DNA from: an uncultured bacterium
GTDB lineage: Bacteria; Patescibacteriota; Minisyncoccia; Phycocordibacterales; UBA11359
DNA: 64,000 nucleotides
Direction: 5' to 3'
Assembly (NCBI GenBank): GCA_903831815.1
Contig: CAIKZC010000010.1
Location: 14,914 to 78,913 of the forward strand
The notes below the pieces were generated by a model. That model was not told the DNA's origin, ran no database searches, and worked only from the letters and a program-made list of their open reading frames with translations. Shown piece after piece: positions 26,336-52,204 of the stretch; within the stretch, counting starts at the first letter, position 1; every line of letters starts with the position of its first letter. Both the position numbers and the translations under genes were made by a program.

Positions 26336-27860
26336 ATTCAGATACTTCGGCAGTGGTGAGCGTAAAATGGGAGCGCGCCGCAGGCGCGCTGTAGGGTGAG
26401 AGGGAGGATTTCCCCTTGCGGGTGCGGACGAAAATGGAGGGCGGGCAAAATGAGATTGAGATAGTTTTGTCTTTTAGCGCGGGGTTCGTTCCAAAAGAGC
26501 GGAGAAAATCTCTCATCTCATGGAGATTTTCGCCCGTTGCCAGAAACCCCGCGCGTTTTGAATCCAAAATCCATTTCCGCAGGGGTTCGACCCAATTCTT
26601 TCTCTCGGCTCGGGCAGATGAAGATTTTGCTTGAAGCGAAAGTTTTTGACGCATGAGTGCGTCTTTTTTGGTCAAATATATCTCGCGCTCAATATCTTGG
26701 TTTAAGTACAAATCAACAAGTGCGTCTAACTTCGCTTCAAGAGTCTTCAAATCTTCCTTCATCTGCCCGAGACGATTTCCCGAAGCGTTGATTTCATCGT
26801 GCTCAAATTCTCCAACTTTTTTGAGCATATAATCTGCCCACGCTTCGGGAAACGACACTGATTGAAGCTGTTCCTTTATTTGGAGAGCGAGCGCACCTTC
26901 CTGCAAATATCCCTGACTACATTTTCCTTTCTTTTTCGTGCAACGATAATAGCGATACCTCCCGCCCATTTTTCCAGTACACCATTGAGCAGTAATCATA
27001 GAGTCACATTCGCCGCAACGAAAAAGACCGGTGAAAGGAAAATTGTGGGATATTTTGCTATGCCTCGGATGCGCTCGCTCCTCCAATCTTTTCTGTACAG
27101 CTTCAAACAGGGTCGGAGAAAGAATCGGTGCAAAGCTTCCGGGAAAAAATTCCCCATGATGTTTGGTGAAGCCGAGATACGCTCGATTGGTCAATATTCT
27201 TTTCACGGAAGCTTTGCCAAGTGGCGTTCCGGACTTTTGTGCTACACCGTGGAGAGCCAAAAACTGCGACAACGAAACTAGGGTATGTGAACCTTTTACA
27301 TATTCTTCATATGCTCGAACAATGATTTTAGATTTCACTGGATCAGGCTCTATGTTACGCGTAACGGGATTGTTCACATACCCGAATGGAGCCCGAGTCA
27401 ACCACTCTCCTCGTCGCAGTTTTTGGCGCATACCTCGCTCAACGTTTTGCTTTAAGTTGTCAGAATAATACTTACTTTGTCCGAACGCCACTTGAAGCAT
27501 AAAGAGACCATGCGGAGTTGGCTCAAACCAAAATGTCGGAAAGCGCAAAGAGACTATTTTAGAAGTGTCGACGGCATAAATGATGCGTCCACCGTCAATG
27601 CTGTTTCTGGCTAGACGGTCGGGGTGCCAGGCGAGAATTCCAACATTACCGACTTTCTCAATTTTAAGCATCATTTTGCCGAACACTTCTCTTCCGGGGC
27701 TCTTGGCGCTTTTCGACTCTTGAAATTCCTCAAGGATTTCAAGATTTTCTCTGCTCGCAAATTCACGAAGTTCTACAAGCTGGGCAGGAATGCTCATGAC
27801 TTGCTTGTCGTCATCTTCAGTACTCTTGCGAGCATAGAGAAAATATTTTGGTTTGTTCAT
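26322..27860 (-). CDS. Large serine recombinase (512 aa) of the IS-like element
   Basis: YARKSTEDDD catalytic-serine motif; resolvase + recombinase domains; zinc ribbon CGECDSM...YYRCTKKKGKC; coiled coil; last ~45 codons lie inside the left inverted repeat. Confidence 0.75.
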   Translation of the reverse strand: MNKPKYFLYARKSTEDDDKQVMSIPAQLVELREFASRENLEILEEFQESKSAKSPGREVFGKMMLKIEKVGNVGILAWHPDRLARNSIDGGRIIYAVDTSKIVSLRFPTFWFEPTPHGLFMLQVAFGQSKYYSDNLKQNVERGMRQKLRRGEWLTRAPFGYVNNPVTRNIEPDPVKSKIIVRAYEEYVKGSHTLVSLSQFLALHGVAQKSGTPLGKASVKRILTNRAYLGFTKHHGEFFPGSFAPILSPTLFEAVQKRLEERAHPRHSKISHNFPFTGLFRCGECDSMITAQWCTGKMGGRYRYYRCTKKKGKCSQGYLQEGALALQIKEQLQSVSFPEAWADYMLKKVGEFEHDEINASGNRLGQMKEDLKTLEAKLDALVDLYLNQDIEREIYLTKKDALMRQKLSLQAKSSSARAERKNWVEPLRKWILDSKRAGFLATGENLHEMRDFLRSFGTNPALKDKTISISFCPPSIFVRTRKGKSSLSPYSAPAARSHFTLTTAEVSECDPR

Positions 27861-28021
27861 ATATATGTTTTGGATTCAAAAAAGGAAACTATCTCAATCT
27901 CATTTTGCCCGCCCTCCATTTTCGTCCGCACCCGCAAGGGGAAATCCTCCCTCTCACCCTACAGCGCGCCTGCGGCGCGCTCCCATTTTACGCTCACCCC
28001 TGCCGAAGTATCTGAATGTGA
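26333..28021. mobile_element. Compact IS-like element: one large serine recombinase gene bounded by ~135-bp near-perfect terminal inverted repeats
   Basis: Reverse complement of 26333..26467 matches 27886..28021 almost perfectly (1-2 mismatches seen by eye); the repeats are far more GC-rich than flanking DNA, carry an internal palindrome GCGCGCCGCAGGCGCGC, and enclose only the recombinase. Confidence 0.65.
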
Positions 28022-28070
28022 TCTAATTGTATCCTTTGGAAAAAAGTTCGTGCAAAGGATACAATTAGAT
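28021..28070. terminator. Perfect 18-bp-stem hairpin (ATCTAATTGTATCCTTTG...CAAAGGATACAATTAGAT) abutting the right element end; likely terminator of the downstream minus-strand methyltransferase gene and/or insertion target
   Basis: Perfect inverted repeat with 14-nt loop, located between IRR and the stop of 28091..29023. Confidence 0.45.
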
Positions 28071-28090
28071 CACCGCGTCATTTTATTTTT

Positions 28091-29023
28091 CTATTTTACC
28101 AAAGCATATACAATGCCCGGTTTTTCTATGATGCTGTAATTTTTGTTATATTTTAATATCAATTCCCTTATTTTCTCTCCGTCACCCTTATTGTGATATG
28201 TGCAGATTGAAAGTTTCGGCGCAAATTTTTCGAGAGTGATTTTGGCGCCCTCAAGAGCTTTTAATTCCGCTCCTTCAATGTCCATTTTAATAAAATCAAT
28301 TTGAGATAATTTTTCTTTTATTACAAAATCATCGATCGTGGTCATGTTTTCATGAGTTTGAACTCCGCAAAAAAGCGGGACAATGGTAATTCGCGTACCA
28401 TTCAATTCTTTGATTAATTCTATTGGTCTGGCGTTTATTGGATCAGGTTCAAATGCAAAAACATTCTTCGCACCTTTAGCCGAACAAACTGCGGAAAAAT
28501 CGCCGGGTCCGGCACCAATATCAAAAACGACGTCACCTGGCTTGATGTTCACTTCATCAAAAAAATACGTAAAACCGTGGGCTACGAGATGCGAGTATTT
28601 AAAACCTGGTTCAATTCTGCCAATATTGTCTTTCCAATATATTAGTCTGGAATATTCTTTTTTTAGTGAAGAATAAAAGACTTCGTTTTGTTGATCGTTG
28701 TAAATGAATTTTTCGGCGTGCGGAATTAAAACATTGAACATTGAATCCGCGATCACTTTGAAAGGGATTTTAATGCCGGCAAAATCATAATATTCTCCAT
28801 TCTTGTATTTATGCCAAATTTTATTGAATTTGCGACAATTTCGATCGTATTCAACATAATCTTTTACACCATTTATGATGTTTTTTGGATCAACTTTTAA
28901 AATATGTATGATTCTCTTGATCCATCGATAGCTGGGGCTGGGTAAATAGTATAAAAAATGAAGAACTTTGGATTTGGCCAATTTCGGACGAATTTTATTT
29001 AGAAATTTCTTTAATGAATGCAT
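28091..29023 (-). CDS. FkbM-family methyltransferase
   Basis: DIGAGPGDFS SAM-binding motif and MDIEGAELKALEGAKITLEKFAPKLSICTYH. Confidence 0.65.
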   Translation of the reverse strand: MHSLKKFLNKIRPKLAKSKVLHFLYYLPSPSYRWIKRIIHILKVDPKNIINGVKDYVEYDRNCRKFNKIWHKYKNGEYYDFAGIKIPFKVIADSMFNVLIPHAEKFIYNDQQNEVFYSSLKKEYSRLIYWKDNIGRIEPGFKYSHLVAHGFTYFFDEVNIKPGDVVFDIGAGPGDFSAVCSAKGAKNVFAFEPDPINARPIELIKELNGTRITIVPLFCGVQTHENMTTIDDFVIKEKLSQIDFIKMDIEGAELKALEGAKITLEKFAPKLSICTYHNKGDGEKIRELILKYNKNYSIIEKPGIVYALVK

Positions 29024-34917: not shown

Positions 34918-34947
34918 TTGACAAATAGCTAACGAGTATGGTATAAT
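34918..34947 (+). promoter_or_regulatory. Near-consensus sigma70 promoter with extended -10 (TTGACA-18 nt-TGgTATAAT)
   Basis: TTGACA at 34918, TGgTATAAT at 34939..34947, ~55 nt upstream of the ORF beginning 35014. Confidence 0.55.
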
Positions 34948-35013
34948 ATCAGACAGAAAAGTGTCGTATCGTTCTATATCATTTAGTATCCAACCCCTAA
35001 CATGGAGGAACAA

Positions 35014-35418
35014 ATGGGTCAGGAAAGAATAACGAATGAGGATGGTGTTTCAGACACCACGATCAAGGAGTGGGTCACCGAAGCGCGTGTTTCGAGAAAG
35101 CTAACACCGGAGATGTCGAAAGAAGCGCGGCGTGATGCAACGGTAAAGGCTTTCGAGAAGGTGTTGATTAAGCATAACCGATCCCTATTACTATCCAGTG
35201 AAAAGGGACAGCGCTTGAAACATCGCATGCATGTTGAATCAGGATTCCGAGGCGGTTGCGTAACCGCCCGGCGTCGGCAGATTCAGCAAGAGCTTGATGC
35301 GGAAGCTGGTGCGGAGGAGGTTGAAAAAACCCGATCCAAACGCCAAGCGAAGCAACATGCGACAGCGCCAACGCTTGTCTTCGCAAGATCACTCTTCGAT
35401 ACTACGAGGTTGTATTAG
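35014..35418 (+). CDS. Hypothetical highly charged small protein; monocistronic with consensus promoter, GGAGG SD and strong terminator
   Basis: GGAGG-aacaa-ATG; 134 aa, Lys/Arg/Glu-rich; GC above neighbouring genes. Confidence 0.45.
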   Translation: MGQERITNEDGVSDTTIKEWVTEARVSRKLTPEMSKEARRDATVKAFEKVLIKHNRSLLLSSEKGQRLKHRMHVESGFRGGCVTARRRQIQQELDAEAGAEEVEKTRSKRQAKQHATAPTLVFARSLFDTTRLY

Positions 35419-35437
35419 AAACCAACTTCAATAAGCA

Positions 35438-35480
35438 AACGGGACTTTCCTTTCGGAAAGTCCCGTTATCTTTTGTATTT
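35438..35480. terminator. Strong bidirectional intrinsic terminator (AACGGGACTTTCC-TTTC-GGAAAGTCCCGTT + T-run)
   Basis: Perfect 13-bp stem between convergent genes, followed by atcttttgtattttttt. Confidence 0.75.
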
Positions 35481-35502
35481 TTTTATTTTAATTTTTATTT
35501 CG

Positions 35503-37464: not shown

Positions 37465-38055
37465 ATGTTTATAATCGCCGGACTGGGAAATCCCGATCAA
37501 GAATACATTGGAACGCGACACAACACAGGCAGGATAATGCTGGAAGTTTTTCGAGCACGACATAATTTGCCTGCTTGGGACGCTGACAAAAAATCTAAAA
37601 GTTTAATTTCCAAAGGTGAGGTGGCAGGTGAAAAAGTAACATTGGTTGAGCCGGAAACTTATATGAACAAATCCGGATCGGCATTGTCATATTTTATAAA
37701 ATCAAAAAAAGCGGCTGAAAATCTGATTGTGATCTATGATGATCTGGATTTGCCTGTCGGTTCAATAAAGGTATCTTTCAATAAGAGTTCCGGCGGTCAC
37801 CGGGGATTGCAATCGATAATTTCGGCGGTCAAGACCGAAGCCTTTCTCCGTATCCGCGTCGGCATCTCCCCGGTGACCGCCTCCGGCAAACTCAAAAAAC
37901 CGAAAGGCGAGGATGCTGTCGGTAAACACATTTTAGGTGTCTTTAAAAAACCGGAACAAGATATTTTGAAAAAAGTGGCAATGCGTGTCAGTGATGCTTT
38001 AGAAATGCTTCTGACCGAAGGTAAAGAAAAAGCTATGGGTGAGTTCAATAAATAA
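37465..38055 (+). CDS. pth: Peptidyl-tRNA hydrolase
   Basis: IIAGLGNPDQEYIGTRHNTG N-terminal signature, VIYDDLDLPVG, GGHRGLQSII. Confidence 0.85.
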   Translation: MFIIAGLGNPDQEYIGTRHNTGRIMLEVFRARHNLPAWDADKKSKSLISKGEVAGEKVTLVEPETYMNKSGSALSYFIKSKKAAENLIVIYDDLDLPVGSIKVSFNKSSGGHRGLQSIISAVKTEAFLRIRVGISPVTASGKLKKPKGEDAVGKHILGVFKKPEQDILKKVAMRVSDALEMLLTEGKEKAMGEFNK

Positions 38056-38061
38056 AAAAAG

Positions 38062-38097
38062 TAGCCGCAGGCGATCGTGGGAGATCGGCTGCGGCTA
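38062..38097 (+). terminator. Stem-loop after pth (TAGCCGCAG...CTGCGGCTA); weak T-tract
   Basis: 9-bp outer stem with internal GATCG pairing. Confidence 0.3.
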
Positions 38098-38254
38098 TTG
38101 AGATGGTACTCTTTGGGGTTCAGGCAAAGAGTGTGGAACCACCTCGCTATGAGCACGAAACGGCTGGAGGGATGGCGGGGTGCCGTTCCGTTTTTGGTGG
38201 AGGAACGATTTTTGCCGCACGTTCCTTCACCGGGAGGGCTCGGGTAGTCGGGTG

Positions 38255-38485
38255 CTACTCTATATCACGCCACATATCACCCGGAAGAGGAATGGGCTGA
38301 GTTGTCCCAGAAATTCCTCCACTCGTTCGGGCATTTGTATCCGCCTGTTCATCAAGATATCGGTTCATGGCTTCGCAAGCTACTTCGCCGGCGGGGCCTT
38401 CATTGGCGGGTGGTGCACCCTCTTCGCTGGTCGGTTGAATCATACCAATTCCTAATTCAAGTCCGGTTAAACCATTGCGGTTCAT
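38255..38485 (-). CDS. Hypothetical small acidic Gly/Pro/Thr-rich protein (76 aa), GC-rich
   Basis: GGAGG-ttagt-ATG SD before MNRNGLTGLELGIGMIQ...; possible promoter TTGTTT-16-TATATT upstream; located in a ~400-bp GC-elevated segment. Confidence 0.3.
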   Translation of the reverse strand: MNRNGLTGLELGIGMIQPTSEEGAPPANEGPAGEVACEAMNRYLDEQADTNARTSGGISGTTQPIPLPGDMWRDIE

Positions 38486-38586
38486 ACTAACCTCCATGTT
38501 TGTTGGAGACACTGAGACCTATTTGTACTGCAACTCTGGCATGAATATACCACAGCTTCTGTAAAAAACAAGTTTAATTTTATAAA

Positions 38587-38696
38587 CAAAAGAAAATAGC
38601 AGTTTTGAGGGACTCACGGAGCGCGACGGCGCGAGTGTGAAGGAAATTTCCAGCAGGAAATTTACCTGTGCCCTCAAAACTGCTATTTTCTTTTGT
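38587..38696. repeat. GC-rich structured palindromic repeat, copy b
   Basis: Perfect 26-bp outer stem ACAAAAGAAAATAGCAGTTTTGAGGG/CCCTCAAAACTGCTATTTTCTTTTGT enclosing core GAGGGACTCACGGAGCGCGACGGCGCGAGTGTGAAGGAAATTTCCAGCAGGAAATTTACC. Confidence 0.7.
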
Positions 38697-38705
38697 TTCT
38701 TATTC

Positions 38706-39866
38706 CTACTTCTTTCCTACAAACGCTAATGCCATTTTTTGATCCTTGGCATCAAATAAAGTTATCTTGAAATCGTAAGTCTTTCCAAGTTCAAGAGCTT
38801 CTCGAAGTTTGTCATCACTTCCAAATTCTGAAACGTGTACTAATCCAGCAATTCCTTCTTCAATCGAAGCCAACGCACCGTGTCGATTGTATTTAATGAT
38901 GACACCTTTGACCAAAGCATCTTTCTTGTATTTCTTTGAAGCTTCAACCCAAGGATTTGGTTTCAAAGCTTTGATTGAAAGAGAAATTTTATTGTCTTTG
39001 ATCTCAATAATTTTCACTTTGACAGTTTCGCCAACTTTGTAGAGAGCGCGAGGATCTTCAACGAGTGACCAATCGAGTTCGGAGATGTGGACAAGTCCTT
39101 CCAAACCTTCCTCGATCTTGACGAAGATTCCAAAATCAACGGTACCGGTGACTTCACCTTTAACTTCATCGCCAACCGTATATTTGCCGATAATTTTCTC
39201 TTTATCTTTTTGGGTTGGGCTCTTTTCTGAGAAAATAAGTTTGCCTTCCTTTGGAGTTGCACCAATAATCGTGACGTGAATTTTTGTATTTACTAATTTT
39301 CGCAATTCCTCAAGAATTTTATCCTTGTCGCCATCAACGATGCGAGGATAATGCTCAGGTTTAAGTTGTGAAGCCGGCAAAAATCCTTGGATGCCTTGCC
39401 ACAATATAATAAGACCACCTTTGTTGGCATCGGTGACCATGACTTCGATCAAAGTTTTATTCTTGATTGCTTCCTCGGCTTCGTTCCAGATAATTGCTTG
39501 CTTTGCTTCCTTGAGAGAAAGCTCGATGTATCCTTCAACGTTGTCGATATCAATAACTTTGGCTGCAACTTTGTCGCCAATGTTTATTTTTCGAACGATA
39601 TCGCGAGCGTTGGTAAATTCGCGACCGTAAATAATACCAGTTCCGTATGGAGCTAGATCTACATATACGGCAGCTTTGTCGATACTGATAACTGGACCTT
39701 CAACCATGTCGCCGACGTTTGGAGTCGCGATTGATTGCTCGATAAATTTAACCATTGGACCAGTAAGAACAGGCACAACAGGGGATTTACCTTTTTTAAC
39801 CTTTGCTAAAATTCCTTCCGCAGGTTTTTTACCTGCAGTTTTTTCGACTGCAACTTCTTTTTTCAT
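38706..39866 (-). CDS. rpsA: 30S ribosomal protein S1 (four S1 domains)
   Basis: Four tandem S1/OB repeats (GDMVEGPVISIDKAAVYVDL..., GDKVAAKVIDIDN..., GDEVKGEVTGTVDFGIFVK..., ALVKGVIIKYNRHGALASI). Confidence 0.75.
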   Translation of the reverse strand: MKKEVAVEKTAGKKPAEGILAKVKKGKSPVVPVLTGPMVKFIEQSIATPNVGDMVEGPVISIDKAAVYVDLAPYGTGIIYGREFTNARDIVRKINIGDKVAAKVIDIDNVEGYIELSLKEAKQAIIWNEAEEAIKNKTLIEVMVTDANKGGLIILWQGIQGFLPASQLKPEHYPRIVDGDKDKILEELRKLVNTKIHVTIIGATPKEGKLIFSEKSPTQKDKEKIIGKYTVGDEVKGEVTGTVDFGIFVKIEEGLEGLVHISELDWSLVEDPRALYKVGETVKVKIIEIKDNKISLSIKALKPNPWVEASKKYKKDALVKGVIIKYNRHGALASIEEGIAGLVHVSEFGSDDKLREALELGKTYDFKITLFDAKDQKMALAFVGKK

Positions 39867-40041
39867 ACATTAATAGGGAACCTGACTGGTCCGTTGTCGC
39901 ACTCGAGCCTAGGGGCTCAACATGCTATGGGCAACGGGATTAGCAGAAAGGCGCTCTTATAATTAAACAAAAACCGCATAACGGTTTTGATAGGGGAAGT
40001 ATACACTAAAATTGGGGGTTGTAAAGAGATGTTTTTAAAAT

Positions 40042-40364
40042 AAAAAAAGTCGCCGCTCCCTAGGTGGGGGCGGCGCTGAAACAGGTCTTCTCGGTTTAGG
40101 GTTGGGTGCGACGATTATGAGGCACCCGACTTCAGGATCAATGGATCCTTACTCTGGATCATCCTAGGCGGACAATATTTCTGTCCGGTACTGCCGAGCA
40201 CCGAACTATTGTGCCTGCCATGTTGGAGTCCGTAACTCCACAATATTCCTTCTACAGGAAATATCTTGTGTTTGCCCTATTCCCTTATTTCTGATCTCCA
40301 CCCGGGCGAGCTTAAACCATTTTGGGGGAATCGAGATTTCTTTCTTCCTAAAAGAACTGTTTCA
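40042..40364 (-). ncRNA. Candidate ~320-nt non-coding RNA or long regulatory leader upstream of rpsA (own promoter and intrinsic terminator, no ORF of 60 aa or more)
   Basis: Minus-strand TTGACA (40393..40398), 16-nt spacer, TATACT (40371..40376); GC-rich hairpin CGCCGC..GCGGCG + T7 at 40042..40076 on minus; ~650-bp ORF-free, GC-elevated gap between rpsA and the NYN gene. Confidence 0.35.
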
Positions 40365-40516
40365 GAAAAGAGTATATACCTAGGTTAAATTATGTCAATA
40401 GTTTGTAAATGGGGATATCTTAAGTGATATGCAATATCACTAAGTGTGTCCCTTGTGGATAAAGTAGCTTGCAACAAAATTATTTTTGATATAGTGCAAA
40501 AGTCCATCTACCCAAC

Positions 40517-41035
40517 ATGAAAATTCAGGAAAATAATTACGCATTTATTGATAGTCAAAATCTTAACTTGAATATTCGTAATCAGGGTTGGAGTTTAGAT
40601 TTCGCTCGTTTTCGTGTGTATTTAAAAGAGAAATATGGAGTAACAAAAGCTTTTTTGTTTGTTGGGTATGTAGAAGAAAATCAAGAATTGTACGATTTTT
40701 TAATTCGTTCTAATTATGTTTGCATTTTCAAACCTATTTTATATAAAGACGGTGTGATAAAAGGAAATTGTGACGCGGAACTTGTTTTGTAGGCAATGAT
40801 TGAATATGAAAAATATGATAAAGCGGTAATTGTATCCGGTGACGGAGATTTTTATTGTTTAGCAAAATATCTTCTTGGGAAAAATAAGTTGAAGTTTATT
40901 GTCATCCCAAACAAACTTAAGTATTCTGCTTTATTGAAGTTTGAAATATTTCGCGAATATCGCAGATATTTGAACGATTTGAAGGAAAAATTGGAGTATA
41001 AAAAGAAAAGGCCCCACAAGGACGAAACCTTGTAG
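40517..41035 (+). pseudogene. NYN-domain (LabA-like) gene interrupted by a single in-frame TAG at 40790..40792
   Basis: ORFs 40517..40792 and 40796..41035 are in the same frame; joined they read ...NCDAELVL*AMIEYEKYDKAVIVSGDGDFYCLAKYL, the conserved NYN core where the stop replaces a normally conserved residue (TAG vs CAG is one substitution). Confidence 0.6.
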
Positions 41036-41133
41036 GGTGGACTTTTCCATTCTTAGTACTGCTTTATGATATCAAAATAGAAACCAAGCTGTCAAGCTGA
41101 AAAATTTTTAAAATATGATACAATGTCGGTATT

Positions 41134-41772
41134 ATGGTCATCACACATTACGGCGGAGAATTTTTTAAGATCCAGTTTGGCGAAGCGACACTCGCACTTA
41201 ATCCTGTTTCCAAAGATTCAAAATTAAAGTCAGCACGATTTGGTGCAGACGTCGCTCTCGTCAGTTTAAATGACCCGGATTTTAACGGCGTGGATCAAAT
41301 TGGTTTTGGCGAAAAAATGCCATTCATTGTTAATGGTCCTGGTGAATATGAGATCAAAGGTATTTTTATCAAAGGTTTTGGTTCAACTTCAAAATATGGT
41401 GGTGAAAGTCGCATCAACACGATTTATTCTATTTCTCTAGAAAATATGAATCTCTGTTTTCTGGGTGCGCTTGGTACGACGGAATTGTCAGCTGAAATAA
41501 AAGAGGCACTTGGAGATATAGATATCGTCTTTTTGCCGATTGGTGGAGAAGGAGTGCTTACGGCGGCTGAAGCCAATAAAGTGGCGACAGGACTCGAGCC
41601 AAAAATGATTATTCCGATGCATTTTGACGGTATGGGTGACAAAAGTTCTCTTACAAAATTTTTAAAAGAATCGGGATCTGAAGACGTAAAACCGGCCGAC
41701 AAATTAACCATCAAGAAAAAAGATTTGGAAGGCAAGGAAGGGGATGTTGTGGTCTTGTCTTCACAAGCGTAA
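41134..41772 (+). CDS. MBL-fold metal-dependent hydrolase (UPF0173-like)
   Basis: ~212 aa; beta-lactamase-fold pattern with His/Asp clusters (HFDGMGD), N-terminal VITHYGGEFFKI. Confidence 0.45.
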   Translation: MVITHYGGEFFKIQFGEATLALNPVSKDSKLKSARFGADVALVSLNDPDFNGVDQIGFGEKMPFIVNGPGEYEIKGIFIKGFGSTSKYGGESRINTIYSISLENMNLCFLGALGTTELSAEIKEALGDIDIVFLPIGGEGVLTAAEANKVATGLEPKMIIPMHFDGMGDKSSLTKFLKESGSEDVKPADKLTIKKKDLEGKEGDVVVLSSQA

Positions 41773-49467: not shown

Positions 49468-50076
49468 CTACTGGTTTCCGACCAGTATCTGCATCGGACG
49501 GTCATCTCCTTCCGGCCGAATCGGTTCCACGTACATAGTCGTGAATGCTTTCGGCTTTATCGGAACCTTTCTGGAGTCGGAGTATTTGATCGGTTCCGGA
49601 TCGACCAAGTGTTCCTTCCCTTGGGGATCGGTGATCATTCGGTAGATGAGAAAATCATCATCTTTCAGTGCCGGTCTTGCACAAAGTCCGGCGTACTTCT
49701 TGATGGTCACTTTAACTCGCTGGTGAGGATAAGCCCAGATCTCATCCATCTGGCCGGCGGGTGCAGGGGATTCCGCTATTGGCGCCGACTTCGCGGCATC
49801 CGTTGCTCGAGGTGTAGACGAGGGGATCCCGCTGTAACTCTCGCAGATTCGTACCGTGACGATGACCACAATCGTCATTGCAACTATGATCGAGGTCGCT
49901 GCGATCTTGTCGATACGACGAGCTCGCCACAGCTTCCACATGAGACCTGTGACAATTGTCACAAACATCAAGATCCAGAAAGAAGTGGGGTGCAGCAAAT
50001 AGTACAAAATATCTAACGCTGCAACGATAGCGGCTATTATTGCCACCCACTTCGTAAATGTCCGTAAACTTGGCAT
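49468..50076 (-). CDS. Hypothetical membrane protein (GC-rich island)
   Basis: Three N-terminal TM helices then a soluble domain; GC clearly above genome average. Confidence 0.4.
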   Translation of the reverse strand: MPSLRTFTKWVAIIAAIVAALDILYYLLHPTSFWILMFVTIVTGLMWKLWRARRIDKIAATSIIVAMTIVVIVTVRICESYSGIPSSTPRATDAAKSAPIAESPAPAGQMDEIWAYPHQRVKVTIKKYAGLCARPALKDDDFLIYRMITDPQGKEHLVDPEPIKYSDSRKVPIKPKAFTTMYVEPIRPEGDDRPMQILVGNQ

Positions 50077-50202
50077 TGCTACCTCTCTTTCTTTTCCGTG
50101 TTTTTTGTTGTCAAAGGTAGCAACGCGCTACCAAACTAGGCACAGAGTATTGTATCATAATACAACGATAAAGTCAAGAATCGTGAAAATATATAAAAAA
50201 AT

Positions 50203-50240
50203 AACCGCGGACACCAGTTTTTAAACTGGCGCCGCGGTTT
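50203..50240 (-). terminator. Intrinsic terminator hairpin (AACCGCGG...CCGCGGTT with inner palindrome CCAGTTTTTAAACTGG)
   Basis: Downstream of the stop of 50273..51085 on the minus strand, followed by a T-run on that strand. Confidence 0.5.
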
Positions 50241-50272
50241 GTTGACCTTCTTCGTCGTAGTGGTCAAGAGTG

Positions 50273-51085
50273 CTACGGTGACATTGGGACTCCGGAAGCG
50301 GAGTTAGCCCCAGCCACAGACCTCGAAGCGGAAATAGATTCGGAAGCAGCAGACTGAGTCTGCTGTTGTCCCTGAACCTGAAATGCGTTACCGCCTCTTC
50401 CACCGGCACCGCCCAAACCGATGCCACCACCACCGCCGGCTCCGCCCGCGCCGCCGTTAGCTTTGACCACAGTGGAACTGCGTGCTGGCCGAATTAATGC
50501 TCCGGCTACAGCAACACCTGTGCCTTGAGCAATACCTTGCCCAAGACCGTCCATTATGCGTGTGTTTTTGCCAGACGCACTTCCGCTGGCGGAATTCACC
50601 AGGTAAGAATTTCCTGGTTGATTTTCAACCGGCGGATTGGGAACAGCAGTCATTTGCTGTGGCTGCGGAGTGCCGTAGTTTGGAACGGCAGTCGGCGTTT
50701 GCATAATCGGCTGCCGAGCATCGTAGGTGACCTGAGCTGCACCGAATGGTTGCTGCGTCGGCGCCCACGGTTTCGGCGATGTAAATCCGGTTGTCGGAAT
50801 GTTGGCCGGCGGCAGCTGCGGCGGTTGCTGCGCACTTATGTCAGTCGTCTGCTGTGGTGGCGCCACGGGCTCGATCTCAGTAGCGTAGGTGTCGACTTTC
50901 GTCACCACTACGCCACTGTCGTCTTTGTAAGAGACGACGCGATCACGAAGCTTCATGTTGCCGTTTTGGTACGGCTCGCCGATCCAGTGAGAGGTCTCGT
51001 ACTTGTTTGCGCAGCCAACGAGGCCACACAAGATTGTCGCCATAATAGCGACGATGAACAGTTTCATTTTCATGGTTTCTCCCAA
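50273..51085 (-). CDS. Pro/Gln-rich lipoprotein with Gly-rich C-terminus (GC-rich island)
   Basis: Signal peptide + lipobox LVGC; long P/Q-rich low-complexity region; GGAGGAGGGGGIGLGGAGGRGG tract. Confidence 0.5.
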   Translation of the reverse strand: MGETMKMKLFIVAIMATILCGLVGCANKYETSHWIGEPYQNGNMKLRDRVVSYKDDSGVVVTKVDTYATEIEPVAPPQQTTDISAQQPPQLPPANIPTTGFTSPKPWAPTQQPFGAAQVTYDARQPIMQTPTAVPNYGTPQPQQMTAVPNPPVENQPGNSYLVNSASGSASGKNTRIMDGLGQGIAQGTGVAVAGALIRPARSSTVVKANGGAGGAGGGGGIGLGGAGGRGGNAFQVQGQQQTQSAASESISASRSVAGANSASGVPMSP

Positions 51086-51130
51086 AAAAGAACGAAAAAC
51101 AAAACGAAGGATCGAACTTCCTTGCTCAGC

Positions 51131-52204
51131 TTATGGCTGAGAGGGCAAGGAGAGTGGAATCGTTAACAACCCCGATCCTGCTGGCGCATACGGAAAGTTT
51201 CCCGGACTCGCCATGTAGCGTGTAAAACCTCCACCTTGGTAAAATCGCGAGGGACTGACGTTTGTCACCGGGGTTACCAGTTTGGCAACTTCAGGTGAGT
51301 AAACGATCTGGCCGGTCGCGTTGTCTACCGTAAAAGGAAGGCTATACATGACAACATACGGCCAATCGTTTGGCACGCCGTTCACCCAAAAGCGGGTGTG
51401 TTTGCTGCCATCGGGTTGGCTAAAGTCGTTCATGTAGACACCGTCAACAGCCTTGACCAAAGCTCCATCATCCAGACACAAAAGGATATTCACCTTCCAT
51501 ATCGGAGGAGCATTGCCAGAAAGTATGGCGCCGCGATCCTTTTGGGGGATTTGCGCCAACACTTTCTGAAAATCTTGACTCAGTCCATCGAGCTTGCTTC
51601 CCAGCTTGTCTCCAAGCTCTTTCATGTCGGCCTTGGTAGCCAATGGACTTGTCGTCGGATCGAAGATCTGGCGACGCTGTTCGTCGAACTGCGCCTGAGT
51701 TTTCTTGACGACACGTTCGGCCACATCGTCGGCATATTTCGTCCAGTTATCGGCGGTGACGAGCTTCTCCTTATCTTTGAGAATCTCGTTCCGCAATTCG
51801 CTGATGATCTTGCCGCTTGAGTCGCTTGCGCCAGACTTCATGCTATCGGACTTCAAGAGCCAGATACCGAATCCGACAACAACGATCAGGGCGATGATAG
51901 CCAGGATAAACCAAGCAATCTCCGACCACTTGGCAATCCTCGACGCGACCTGACTCGGTGCGGGTGCCGGTTGCCCAGGCGGATTGGGATCCGTGTTCCT
52001 GGTTGCGACACCAGGGACCAAACCGAACTGTTCCATGGATATTCTTCTCAGATAACCTGCGCGCTCCATCTCCTCGACTACAGGATCGCGAATTTCTTCG
52101 CGTCCTCGTGCGGGCGCAGGTGCGGGTGCCGGTGGAACTGTACTCGACGCAGGTGCAGGGCCCGGATTAGGGGGACTTGCAGGGTTATTCGGAACTTGTG
52201 ACAT
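51131..52204 (-). CDS. Hypothetical surface protein: Pro-rich N-terminus, one TM, extracellular domain (GC-rich island)
   Basis: PAPAPAPA-type N-terminus, TM WFILAIIALIVVVGFGIWLL, ~230-aa C-terminal domain. Confidence 0.45.
   Translation of the reverse strand: MSQVPNNPASPPNPGPAPASSTVPPAPAPAPARGREEIRDPVVEEMERAGYLRRISMEQFGLVPGVATRNTDPNPPGQPAPAPSQVASRIAKWSEIAWFILAIIALIVVVGFGIWLLKSDSMKSGASDSSGKIISELRNEILKDKEKLVTADNWTKYADDVAERVVKKTQAQFDEQRRQIFDPTTSPLATKADMKELGDKLGSKLDGLSQDFQKVLAQIPQKDRGAILSGNAPPIWKVNILLCLDDGALVKAVDGVYMNDFSQPDGSKHTRFWVNGVPNDWPYVVMYSLPFTVDNATGQIVYSPEVAKLVTPVTNVSPSRFYQGGGFTRYMASPGNFPYAPAGSGLLTIPLSLPSQP

Follow-up and report, generated by a model that had tools for sequence, protein, structure and literature searches.

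A candidate structured RNA gene in a strain-specific insertion upstream of rpsA in an uncultured Candidatus Taylorbacteria genome

Genes and transcription signals upstream of rpsA

The DNA analyzed here (the window, 64,000 nucleotides at full length) comes from the genome of an uncultured Candidatus Taylorbacteria (Patescibacteria/Paceibacteria). The genes around the locus lie in the order pth, a small orphan cassette, rpsA (38706-39866 on the minus strand, with its start at 39866), the interval studied here, a NYN-domain gene, a metallo-beta-lactamase-fold gene and gyrA. The S1 protein encoded by rpsA shares 93% identity with its counterpart in MAG UBA11359 and 70-79% with those of 79 other Paceibacteria MAGs. 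Features of the locus are collected in Table 1.

An earlier, sequence-only reading had described the interval as GC-elevated, lacking ORFs of 60 aa or more, and carrying a promoter and an intrinsic terminator of its own on the rpsA strand. The promoter, TTGACA-16-TATACT at 40398..40371, was found as described. It matches the sigma-70 consensus at 11 of 12 positions and is one of only three sites scoring at least 11/12 in the window when both strands (128 kb of strand sequence) are counted. Given the usual spacing of 6-8 nt, transcription is predicted to start at about 40364-40366. The terminator also proved to be present as CGCCGCCCCCACCTAGGGAGCGGCG followed by AC and seven T residues; a simple terminator scan of the sequence did not list this site (40075..40042). 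It lies 175 nt from the rpsA start codon, in agreement with the approximately 170 nt estimated earlier. At 0.46-0.49, the GC content of the interval is only mildly above that of the window (0.42); the adjoining NYN region is at 0.30-0.35.

Two further signals were seen on the NYN side of the candidate gene. A palindrome with 19-nt arms (GGGATATCTTAAGTGATAT/ATATCACTAAGTGTGTCCC) occupies 40412-40452, between the divergent RNA and NYN promoters, and may be an operator. A second near-consensus promoter-like site (TTGACA-18-TATCAT, 11/12, minus strand) at 41066-41095 lies at the edge of the insertion described below and is directed antisense into the NYN pseudogene.

Table 1. Positions of features at the rpsA locus (window coordinates unless a locus is named)
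Feature	Position	Strand	Basis
-35 hexamer TTGACA of the candidate RNA gene	40393..40398	-	promoter scan
-10 hexamer TATACT, 16-nt spacer	40371..40376	-	promoter scan
Intrinsic terminator, CGCCGC-CCC...GGG-GCGGCG, then AC and T7	40042..40075	-	sequence; fold -18.3 kcal/mol
Predicted closing helix P1, 5' arm (RNA 2-20), CUGAAACAGUUCUUUUAGG	40347..40365	-	pair probability 0.8-0.99; inverted repeat
Predicted closing helix P1, 3' arm (RNA 273-291)	40076..40094	-	fold; inverted repeat
Predicted hairpin I (RNA 36-88), three stacked helices	40279..40331	-	one-sequence prediction, probabilities 0.88-0.99
Predicted hairpins II and III (RNA 102-125 and 127-143)	40224..40265	-	prediction, probabilities 0.53-0.97
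Predicted hairpin IV (RNA 148-200), 21 pairs, 5-nt AGAAA bulge, CGGC loop	40167..40219	-	probability 0.97-0.98
Predicted region V (RNA 202-239) and hairpin VI (RNA 240-263)	40104..40165	-	fold prediction
Strain-specific insertion, about 1.08 kb, with RNA gene and NYN pseudogene	40032..41111	.	absent from close relatives
NYN (LabA-like) gene, divergent from the RNA gene	40517..41035	+	homologue alignment
Proximal rpsA promoter TTTACA-16-TATACT, outside the RNA gene	39998..40025	-	conserved in L001, L162 and L165
rpsA leader element, CUUUCUG-CUAAUC-CCG...CGG-AC-CAGUCAGG, outside the RNA gene	39877..39954	-	divergent match to clade motif
Clade leader motif, examples in other loci	L019 3853-3916; L005 3855-3917; plus 42 further loci		covariance model

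The region between the two signals is non-coding. No ORF of 60 aa or more lies between rpsA and the NYN ORF, as the sequence-only reading had indicated; the longest are 40-46 aa, and several stops occur in each of the six frames. The 3-nt periodicity of the region is 0.149, lower than in any of 112 equally long coding windows (5th percentile 0.80) and lower than the median of shuffled sequences (0.67). Values of 1.9-3.2 were obtained for the NYN gene and two neighboring orphan ORFs. Concatenated stop-free stretches from five of the six frames were compared to 5.8 billion proteins, and none matched.

The divergent NYN gene carries an in-frame TAG at 40790-40792, where Gln is found in all eight aligned homologues, and is otherwise intact. 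Its family is very large, with at least 8000 matches, the best 120 of those listed being 67-82% identical. Across Patescibacteria, the homologues are found in a wide variety of surroundings and frequently on short contigs, a pattern suggestive of mobility. The other NYN loci that were checked had no adjoining copy of the candidate RNA; the two are therefore not an obligate pair.

A strain-specific insertion in front of the rpsA promoter

Close relatives of the window (S1 at least 90% identical) are represented by loci L001, L162 and L165 and by the P0122 contig, and neither the RNA nor the NYN gene is present in any of the four. In the case of L001, the closest relative, homology stops at 41112 and resumes at 40031, directly after the T-run of the terminator and just before a second promoter, the proximal promoter of rpsA. 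Homology to L162 resumes at 40026. In L001, L162 and L165, the three relatives with DNA at this position, homology resumes at the -35 box of that proximal promoter. What these relatives carry instead differs from one to the next: a 159-aa orphan ORF with its own terminator in L001, a different 133-aa orphan ORF in L162 and unrelated sequence in L165. The P0122 contig has a 311-nt gap, which is too short for the element. In most of the other 79 loci, just 100-250 nt lie upstream of rpsA.

The slot runs from the beta-lactamase-fold gene to the rpsA promoter (40032-41111 in the window, 3147-3833 in L001, 2187-2837 in L162) and in each close relative is either empty or occupied by a different orphan cassette, GC-rich and equipped with a promoter and terminator of its own. 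No boundary repeat common to the insertions was seen. Taken together, the compared sequences show a hypervariable cassette slot with fast turnover between strains. Since the RNA lies in a strain-specific insertion within this slot, it was probably acquired horizontally.

Conservation of the interval, whose absence in relatives the sequence-only reading had named as a refutation of its proposal, was not found in any of the relatives examined. This weakens the case for a housekeeping role; the RNA may nonetheless be made. Searches of the 80 related rpsA loci and of NYN loci using blastn, nhmmer, tblastx and a single-sequence covariance model (R1) returned only identical copies from the same strain. 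A distant blastn search of phage and plasmid databases gave no match to the candidate RNA. Six exact words were searched in IMG/VR, where two gave chance matches lacking flanking similarity and four gave none. In the metagenome collection, an exact 22-mer had no match and an exact 18-mer had 51 chance matches, on GC-rich contigs with unrelated flanks; Rfam detected nothing in the 20 of these loci that were scanned with it. The large collections were scanned by exact words only, a procedure by which diverged homologues could have been missed.

The RNA region was recovered at 100% identity in at least six contigs assembled from several samples (ENA ERZ27313080/81/96/102, ERZ18625277 and ERZ18626762), which establishes that the sequence is real DNA and not an assembly artefact. 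Because all recovered copies are identical and no homologue was found, there is no variation with which structure or function could be examined by covariation. For the same reason, the searches yielded no evidence of selection on the candidate RNA.

Other cassettes were observed in the window. A strain-specific, GC-rich (0.50-0.57) cassette at 38050-38570 on the minus strand, directly downstream of rpsA and absent from L001, combines a 76-aa orphan ORF with a promoter-like site, a strong terminator and approximately 200 nt of additional non-coding DNA. At 34918-35490 on the plus strand, the sole perfect (12/12) sigma-70 promoter of the window precedes a GC-rich 138-aa orphan ORF, whose strong terminator has the same T7-A-TTT tail as the other cassettes. 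The proteins of the slot cassettes and the ORF at 38050-38570 had no significant match in Pfam, PADLOC or PHROG.

The distribution of CCTAGG is also unusual. All four occurrences in the 64-kb window (39908, 40059, 40163 and 40379) fall within 477 bp that span the RNA gene and the rpsA leader, and CTAG is under-represented genome-wide (82 observed vs 236 expected). The cluster may mark foreign origin, or it may be a binding or pairing site.

Predicted fold and comparison with known RNA classes

The predicted transcript is about 325 nt long, from a start at about 40365 to the terminator, with a body of about 290 nt. Its minimum free energy is -120 kcal/mol (z = -5.06). In a sliding scan, the RNA region ranked 8th of 193 windows by folding z-score and several coding windows were equally low; the z-score on its own is therefore weak evidence. 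Strongly negative folding z-scores, reaching about -9 when scanned roughly with 12 shuffles, were also obtained for coding regions at 26505-28154 and 49900-51600. The latter lies inside an island of GC 0.58-0.61, and Rfam gave no match in either.

The ends of the body are more distinctive. P1 is the best 19-nt inverted repeat of the transcript, with 16 of 19 Watson-Crick pairs, and it is formed by the first and last bases of the body. Its 5' arm lies directly after the predicted start and its 3' arm ends where the terminator stem begins. A 16/19 repeat was reached anywhere in the sequence in just 1 of 400 shuffles of the RNA. P1 is predicted to close a branched core of five or six hairpins, and most helices have pair probabilities of at least 0.88. 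Hairpin IV is the most stable internal element. Hairpin VI has a 6-bp stem with a 12-nt loop, CUCAUAAUCGUC, at a probability of 1.0. Region V contains repeated GGAUC/GAUCC segments that allow two alternative pairings, and its fold is uncertain (probability 0.3-0.6).

Comparison with known RNA classes gave no assignment. Rfam 15, run over the whole window at the gathering threshold, had no match in the region. At E-values up to 10 (on 801 nt and 331 nt) only chance matches appeared, namely RAGATH-13 outside the element and SNORD22 and IRE on the opposite strand. ARAGORN detected neither tRNA nor tmRNA in 37500-41500, and no T-loop motif was visible. These results bear out the earlier statement that the RNA could not be matched to RNase P, tmRNA, SRP or 6S RNA. 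On reading the RNA sequence, hallmark sequences of RNase P, SRP, tmRNA, T-box and group I intron RNAs were absent. C/D-box and K-turn motifs were considered and dropped on the sequence. A CsrB-like GGA sponge was rejected as well, the GGA motifs of the RNA being mostly within stems. Complementarity of the RNA to the rpsA leader or to the NYN 5' region was no better than that of shuffled sequences. Intron-split tRNAs have been reported for Patescibacteria (PMC13011429, 2026); no tRNA exon halves of this kind flank the RNA body.

In its overall organization, the candidate has what bacterial non-coding RNA genes generically have: its own promoter, its own terminator and no coding potential. In architecture it resembles 6S, RNase P, SRP, Ms1 and bacterial Y RNAs, which share with it a length of 200-400 nt, a promoter and an intrinsic terminator of their own, a long helix that pairs both ends, a multi-hairpin body and the lack of an ORF. 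However, the candidate matches none of their Rfam models at E-values up to 10, and these housekeeping RNAs are conserved across relatives whereas the candidate is strain-specific.

Retron msr-msd RNAs are about 150-300 nt long, with a1/a2 inverted repeats that pair the ends and with short hairpins followed by one long hairpin. The candidate is similar in its end-pairing repeats, size and hairpin layout, but no reverse transcriptase follows it. Downstream are the terminator, the rpsA promoter and rpsA, and upstream is the NYN gene, and a retron was rejected on this ground. The large RNAs raiA, HEARO, ROOL, GOLLD and OLE are also comparable in having an elaborate fold and a biochemical function that is unknown and in often residing in mobile or accessory DNA. 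These classes are defined by covariation over many genomes, whereas the candidate is one sequence, and it had no Rfam match to any of them.

Possible origins of the candidate RNA and the separate rpsA leader

The combination of promoter, terminator and end-to-end helix suggests that an RNA of about 325 nt, stable, highly structured and of no recognized class, is encoded here by an independent gene that was probably acquired horizontally. We assign this reading a probability of about one half; transcription, stability and any function of the RNA are inferred from the features described above. According to this reading, a strong sigma-70-type promoter would fire about 7 nt upstream of the 19-nt helix, which would join the 5' end of the RNA to the bases just ahead of the strong intrinsic terminator. 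The RNA would then have both ends buried in helices, and the end helix would close a multi-branched core of five or six hairpins. The most plausible role for an RNA with locked ends and such a core is that of a trans-acting scaffold or protein-binding RNA, with catalysis as a further possibility; an sRNA that works by short seed pairing is less plausible. Confirmation would make it a rare example of a large, accessory and strain-variable RNA in a poorly understood phylum. A more specific proposal, that the RNA is the first sighted member of an undescribed class of multi-helix RNAs of about 290 nt carried on accessory cassettes of Patescibacteria, is speculative and quite unlikely to hold. If true, the class could comprise protein-sequestering or defence-related RNAs or ribozymes that move between strains as promoter-RNA-terminator units, and its other members would have been missed in the large collections by scans restricted to exact words.

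The main alternative, possible though somewhat unlikely, is that the region is a non-functional relic, either a cassette whose promoter and terminator outlived its ORF or inert foreign DNA that folds by chance, and that it is perhaps transcribed but idle. The same layout of promoter, orphan ORF and terminator is found at 34918-35490 and 38050-38570 and in L001 (3261-3740) and L162 (2324-2725), which is consistent with such an origin. The lack of homologues and of any sign of selection agrees with it, as does the nonsense codon in the adjoining NYN gene; with a pseudogene as neighbor, the whole insertion may be decaying. However, the codon periodicity kept by the NYN gene and other cassettes has left no residue in the RNA region, every reading frame is interrupted by several stops, and a 16/19 repeat that fits exactly between start site and terminator is not expected of a decayed ORF. 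Non-coding DNA is scarce in the tiny genomes of Patescibacteria, which makes it unlikely that a structured RNA of 325 nt with a consensus promoter would be idle there. The repeat itself could be read differently, with the 19-nt arms as the terminal inverted repeats of a MITE-like element and not as an RNA helix. A 290-bp non-coding unit with imperfect inverted repeats at its borders and TG...CA-like ends, lying within an insertion, has the appearance of such an element. This origin is nevertheless improbable, as there is no target-site duplication at the arm ends and no second copy in the 64-kb window, in the related loci or in the k-mer scans, and the promoter and terminator lie just outside the arms, an arrangement that suits an RNA gene better.

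Two further readings carry little weight. The sequence-only reading had left open whether the element is an independent sRNA or a terminator-based leader of rpsA. An independent sRNA fits all of the evidence; the leader and S1 autoregulation through this element were not supported. In a leader, S1 or another factor would control whether the terminator forms or transcription from 40398 continues into rpsA. In E. coli, S1 is known to be autoregulated, and the candidate, like the E. coli rpsA 5' UTR, lies upstream of rpsA on the same strand, only 175 nt from its start. Unlike ribosomal protein leaders, the candidate is a separate, non-conserved unit with a strong terminator placed upstream of the rpsA promoter. 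The element is missing from the four close relatives and the 79 other loci, homology in three of the relatives resumes at the -35 box of the proximal promoter, and rpsA has a conserved promoter and structured leader of its own, so that a separate promoter intervenes. The clade leader motif ends a few nucleotides before the start codon. Alternative antiterminator structures, which had been suggested as a check, were not seen: neither inspection of the sequence nor the MFE and centroid folds revealed a pairing competing with the arms of the -18 kcal/mol terminator. The leader reading is thus largely refuted and very improbable. A small-protein gene, or one with a recoded stop such as TAG read as Gln, is hardly credible. 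The TAG of the NYN gene does align with Gln in all homologues, and in one minus-strand frame of the RNA region TAG accounts for two of the three stops. However, read-through of that frame would yield no more than about 50 aa, and its GTG start lacks a ribosome-binding site; the region has neither periodicity nor a protein homologue, and the standard code leaves the other genes of the window intact.

The firmer value of the analysis lies in the hypervariable cassette slot and in the separate leader motif of rpsA. In many relatives this motif occupies the last approximately 100 nt before rpsA. It consists of a 7-bp helix (P1 of the leader), a (C)UAA(A/C)(A/C) junction, a CCGC/GCGG helix, an AU-rich loop of approximately 26 nt ending in UAAAAAGCGG, an A(C/A/U) junction and the 3' strand of P1. 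A seed alignment of 27 sequences displayed compensatory changes in all seven P1 pairs, and its covariation score was reached in 0 of 500 shuffles. The covariance model built on the motif found it in 44 of the 80 related loci, always on the rpsA strand, and had no off-target match in 688 kb. The alignment of these 44 sequences has pairing in 91% of cells and double changes at 9 of its 11 pairs. The 3' end of the motif lies a few nucleotides before the start codon where it was checked against predicted starts, and no Shine-Dalgarno sequence was visible before the start codon in the loci that were read.

The leader of the window is a weak and divergent match, with a GC-rich insert in place of the AU-rich loop. 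It scored 10.3 bits (E 0.09 in 801 nt), which was the best match and at the expected position, and the leader helices change in a compensatory manner among L001, L162 and the window. With its filters off, the leader motif model (R2) did not match the candidate RNA; the proximal leader was the only match, a weak one, within 39700-40500. A loop that is AU-rich and adjoins a start codon lacking a visible Shine-Dalgarno sequence fits binding and autoregulation by S1. The clade motif is therefore likely to be an S1 autoregulatory element, the mechanism being deduced from these sequence features. Rfam detected nothing in the four motif-carrying loci scanned, and S1 is not mentioned in a paper that describes 20 ribosomal leaders. 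In this clade, rpsA appears to have as its conserved regulatory element a different RNA motif, undetected by Rfam, which makes S1 autoregulation in Patescibacteria directly testable. At the other end of the gene, a long, near-perfect inverted repeat with arms of about 30 nt (GAAACAAAAGAAAAUAGCAGUUUUGAGGG...) lies at 38580-38700, immediately after the rpsA stop codon, and may be a terminator or a processing hairpin.
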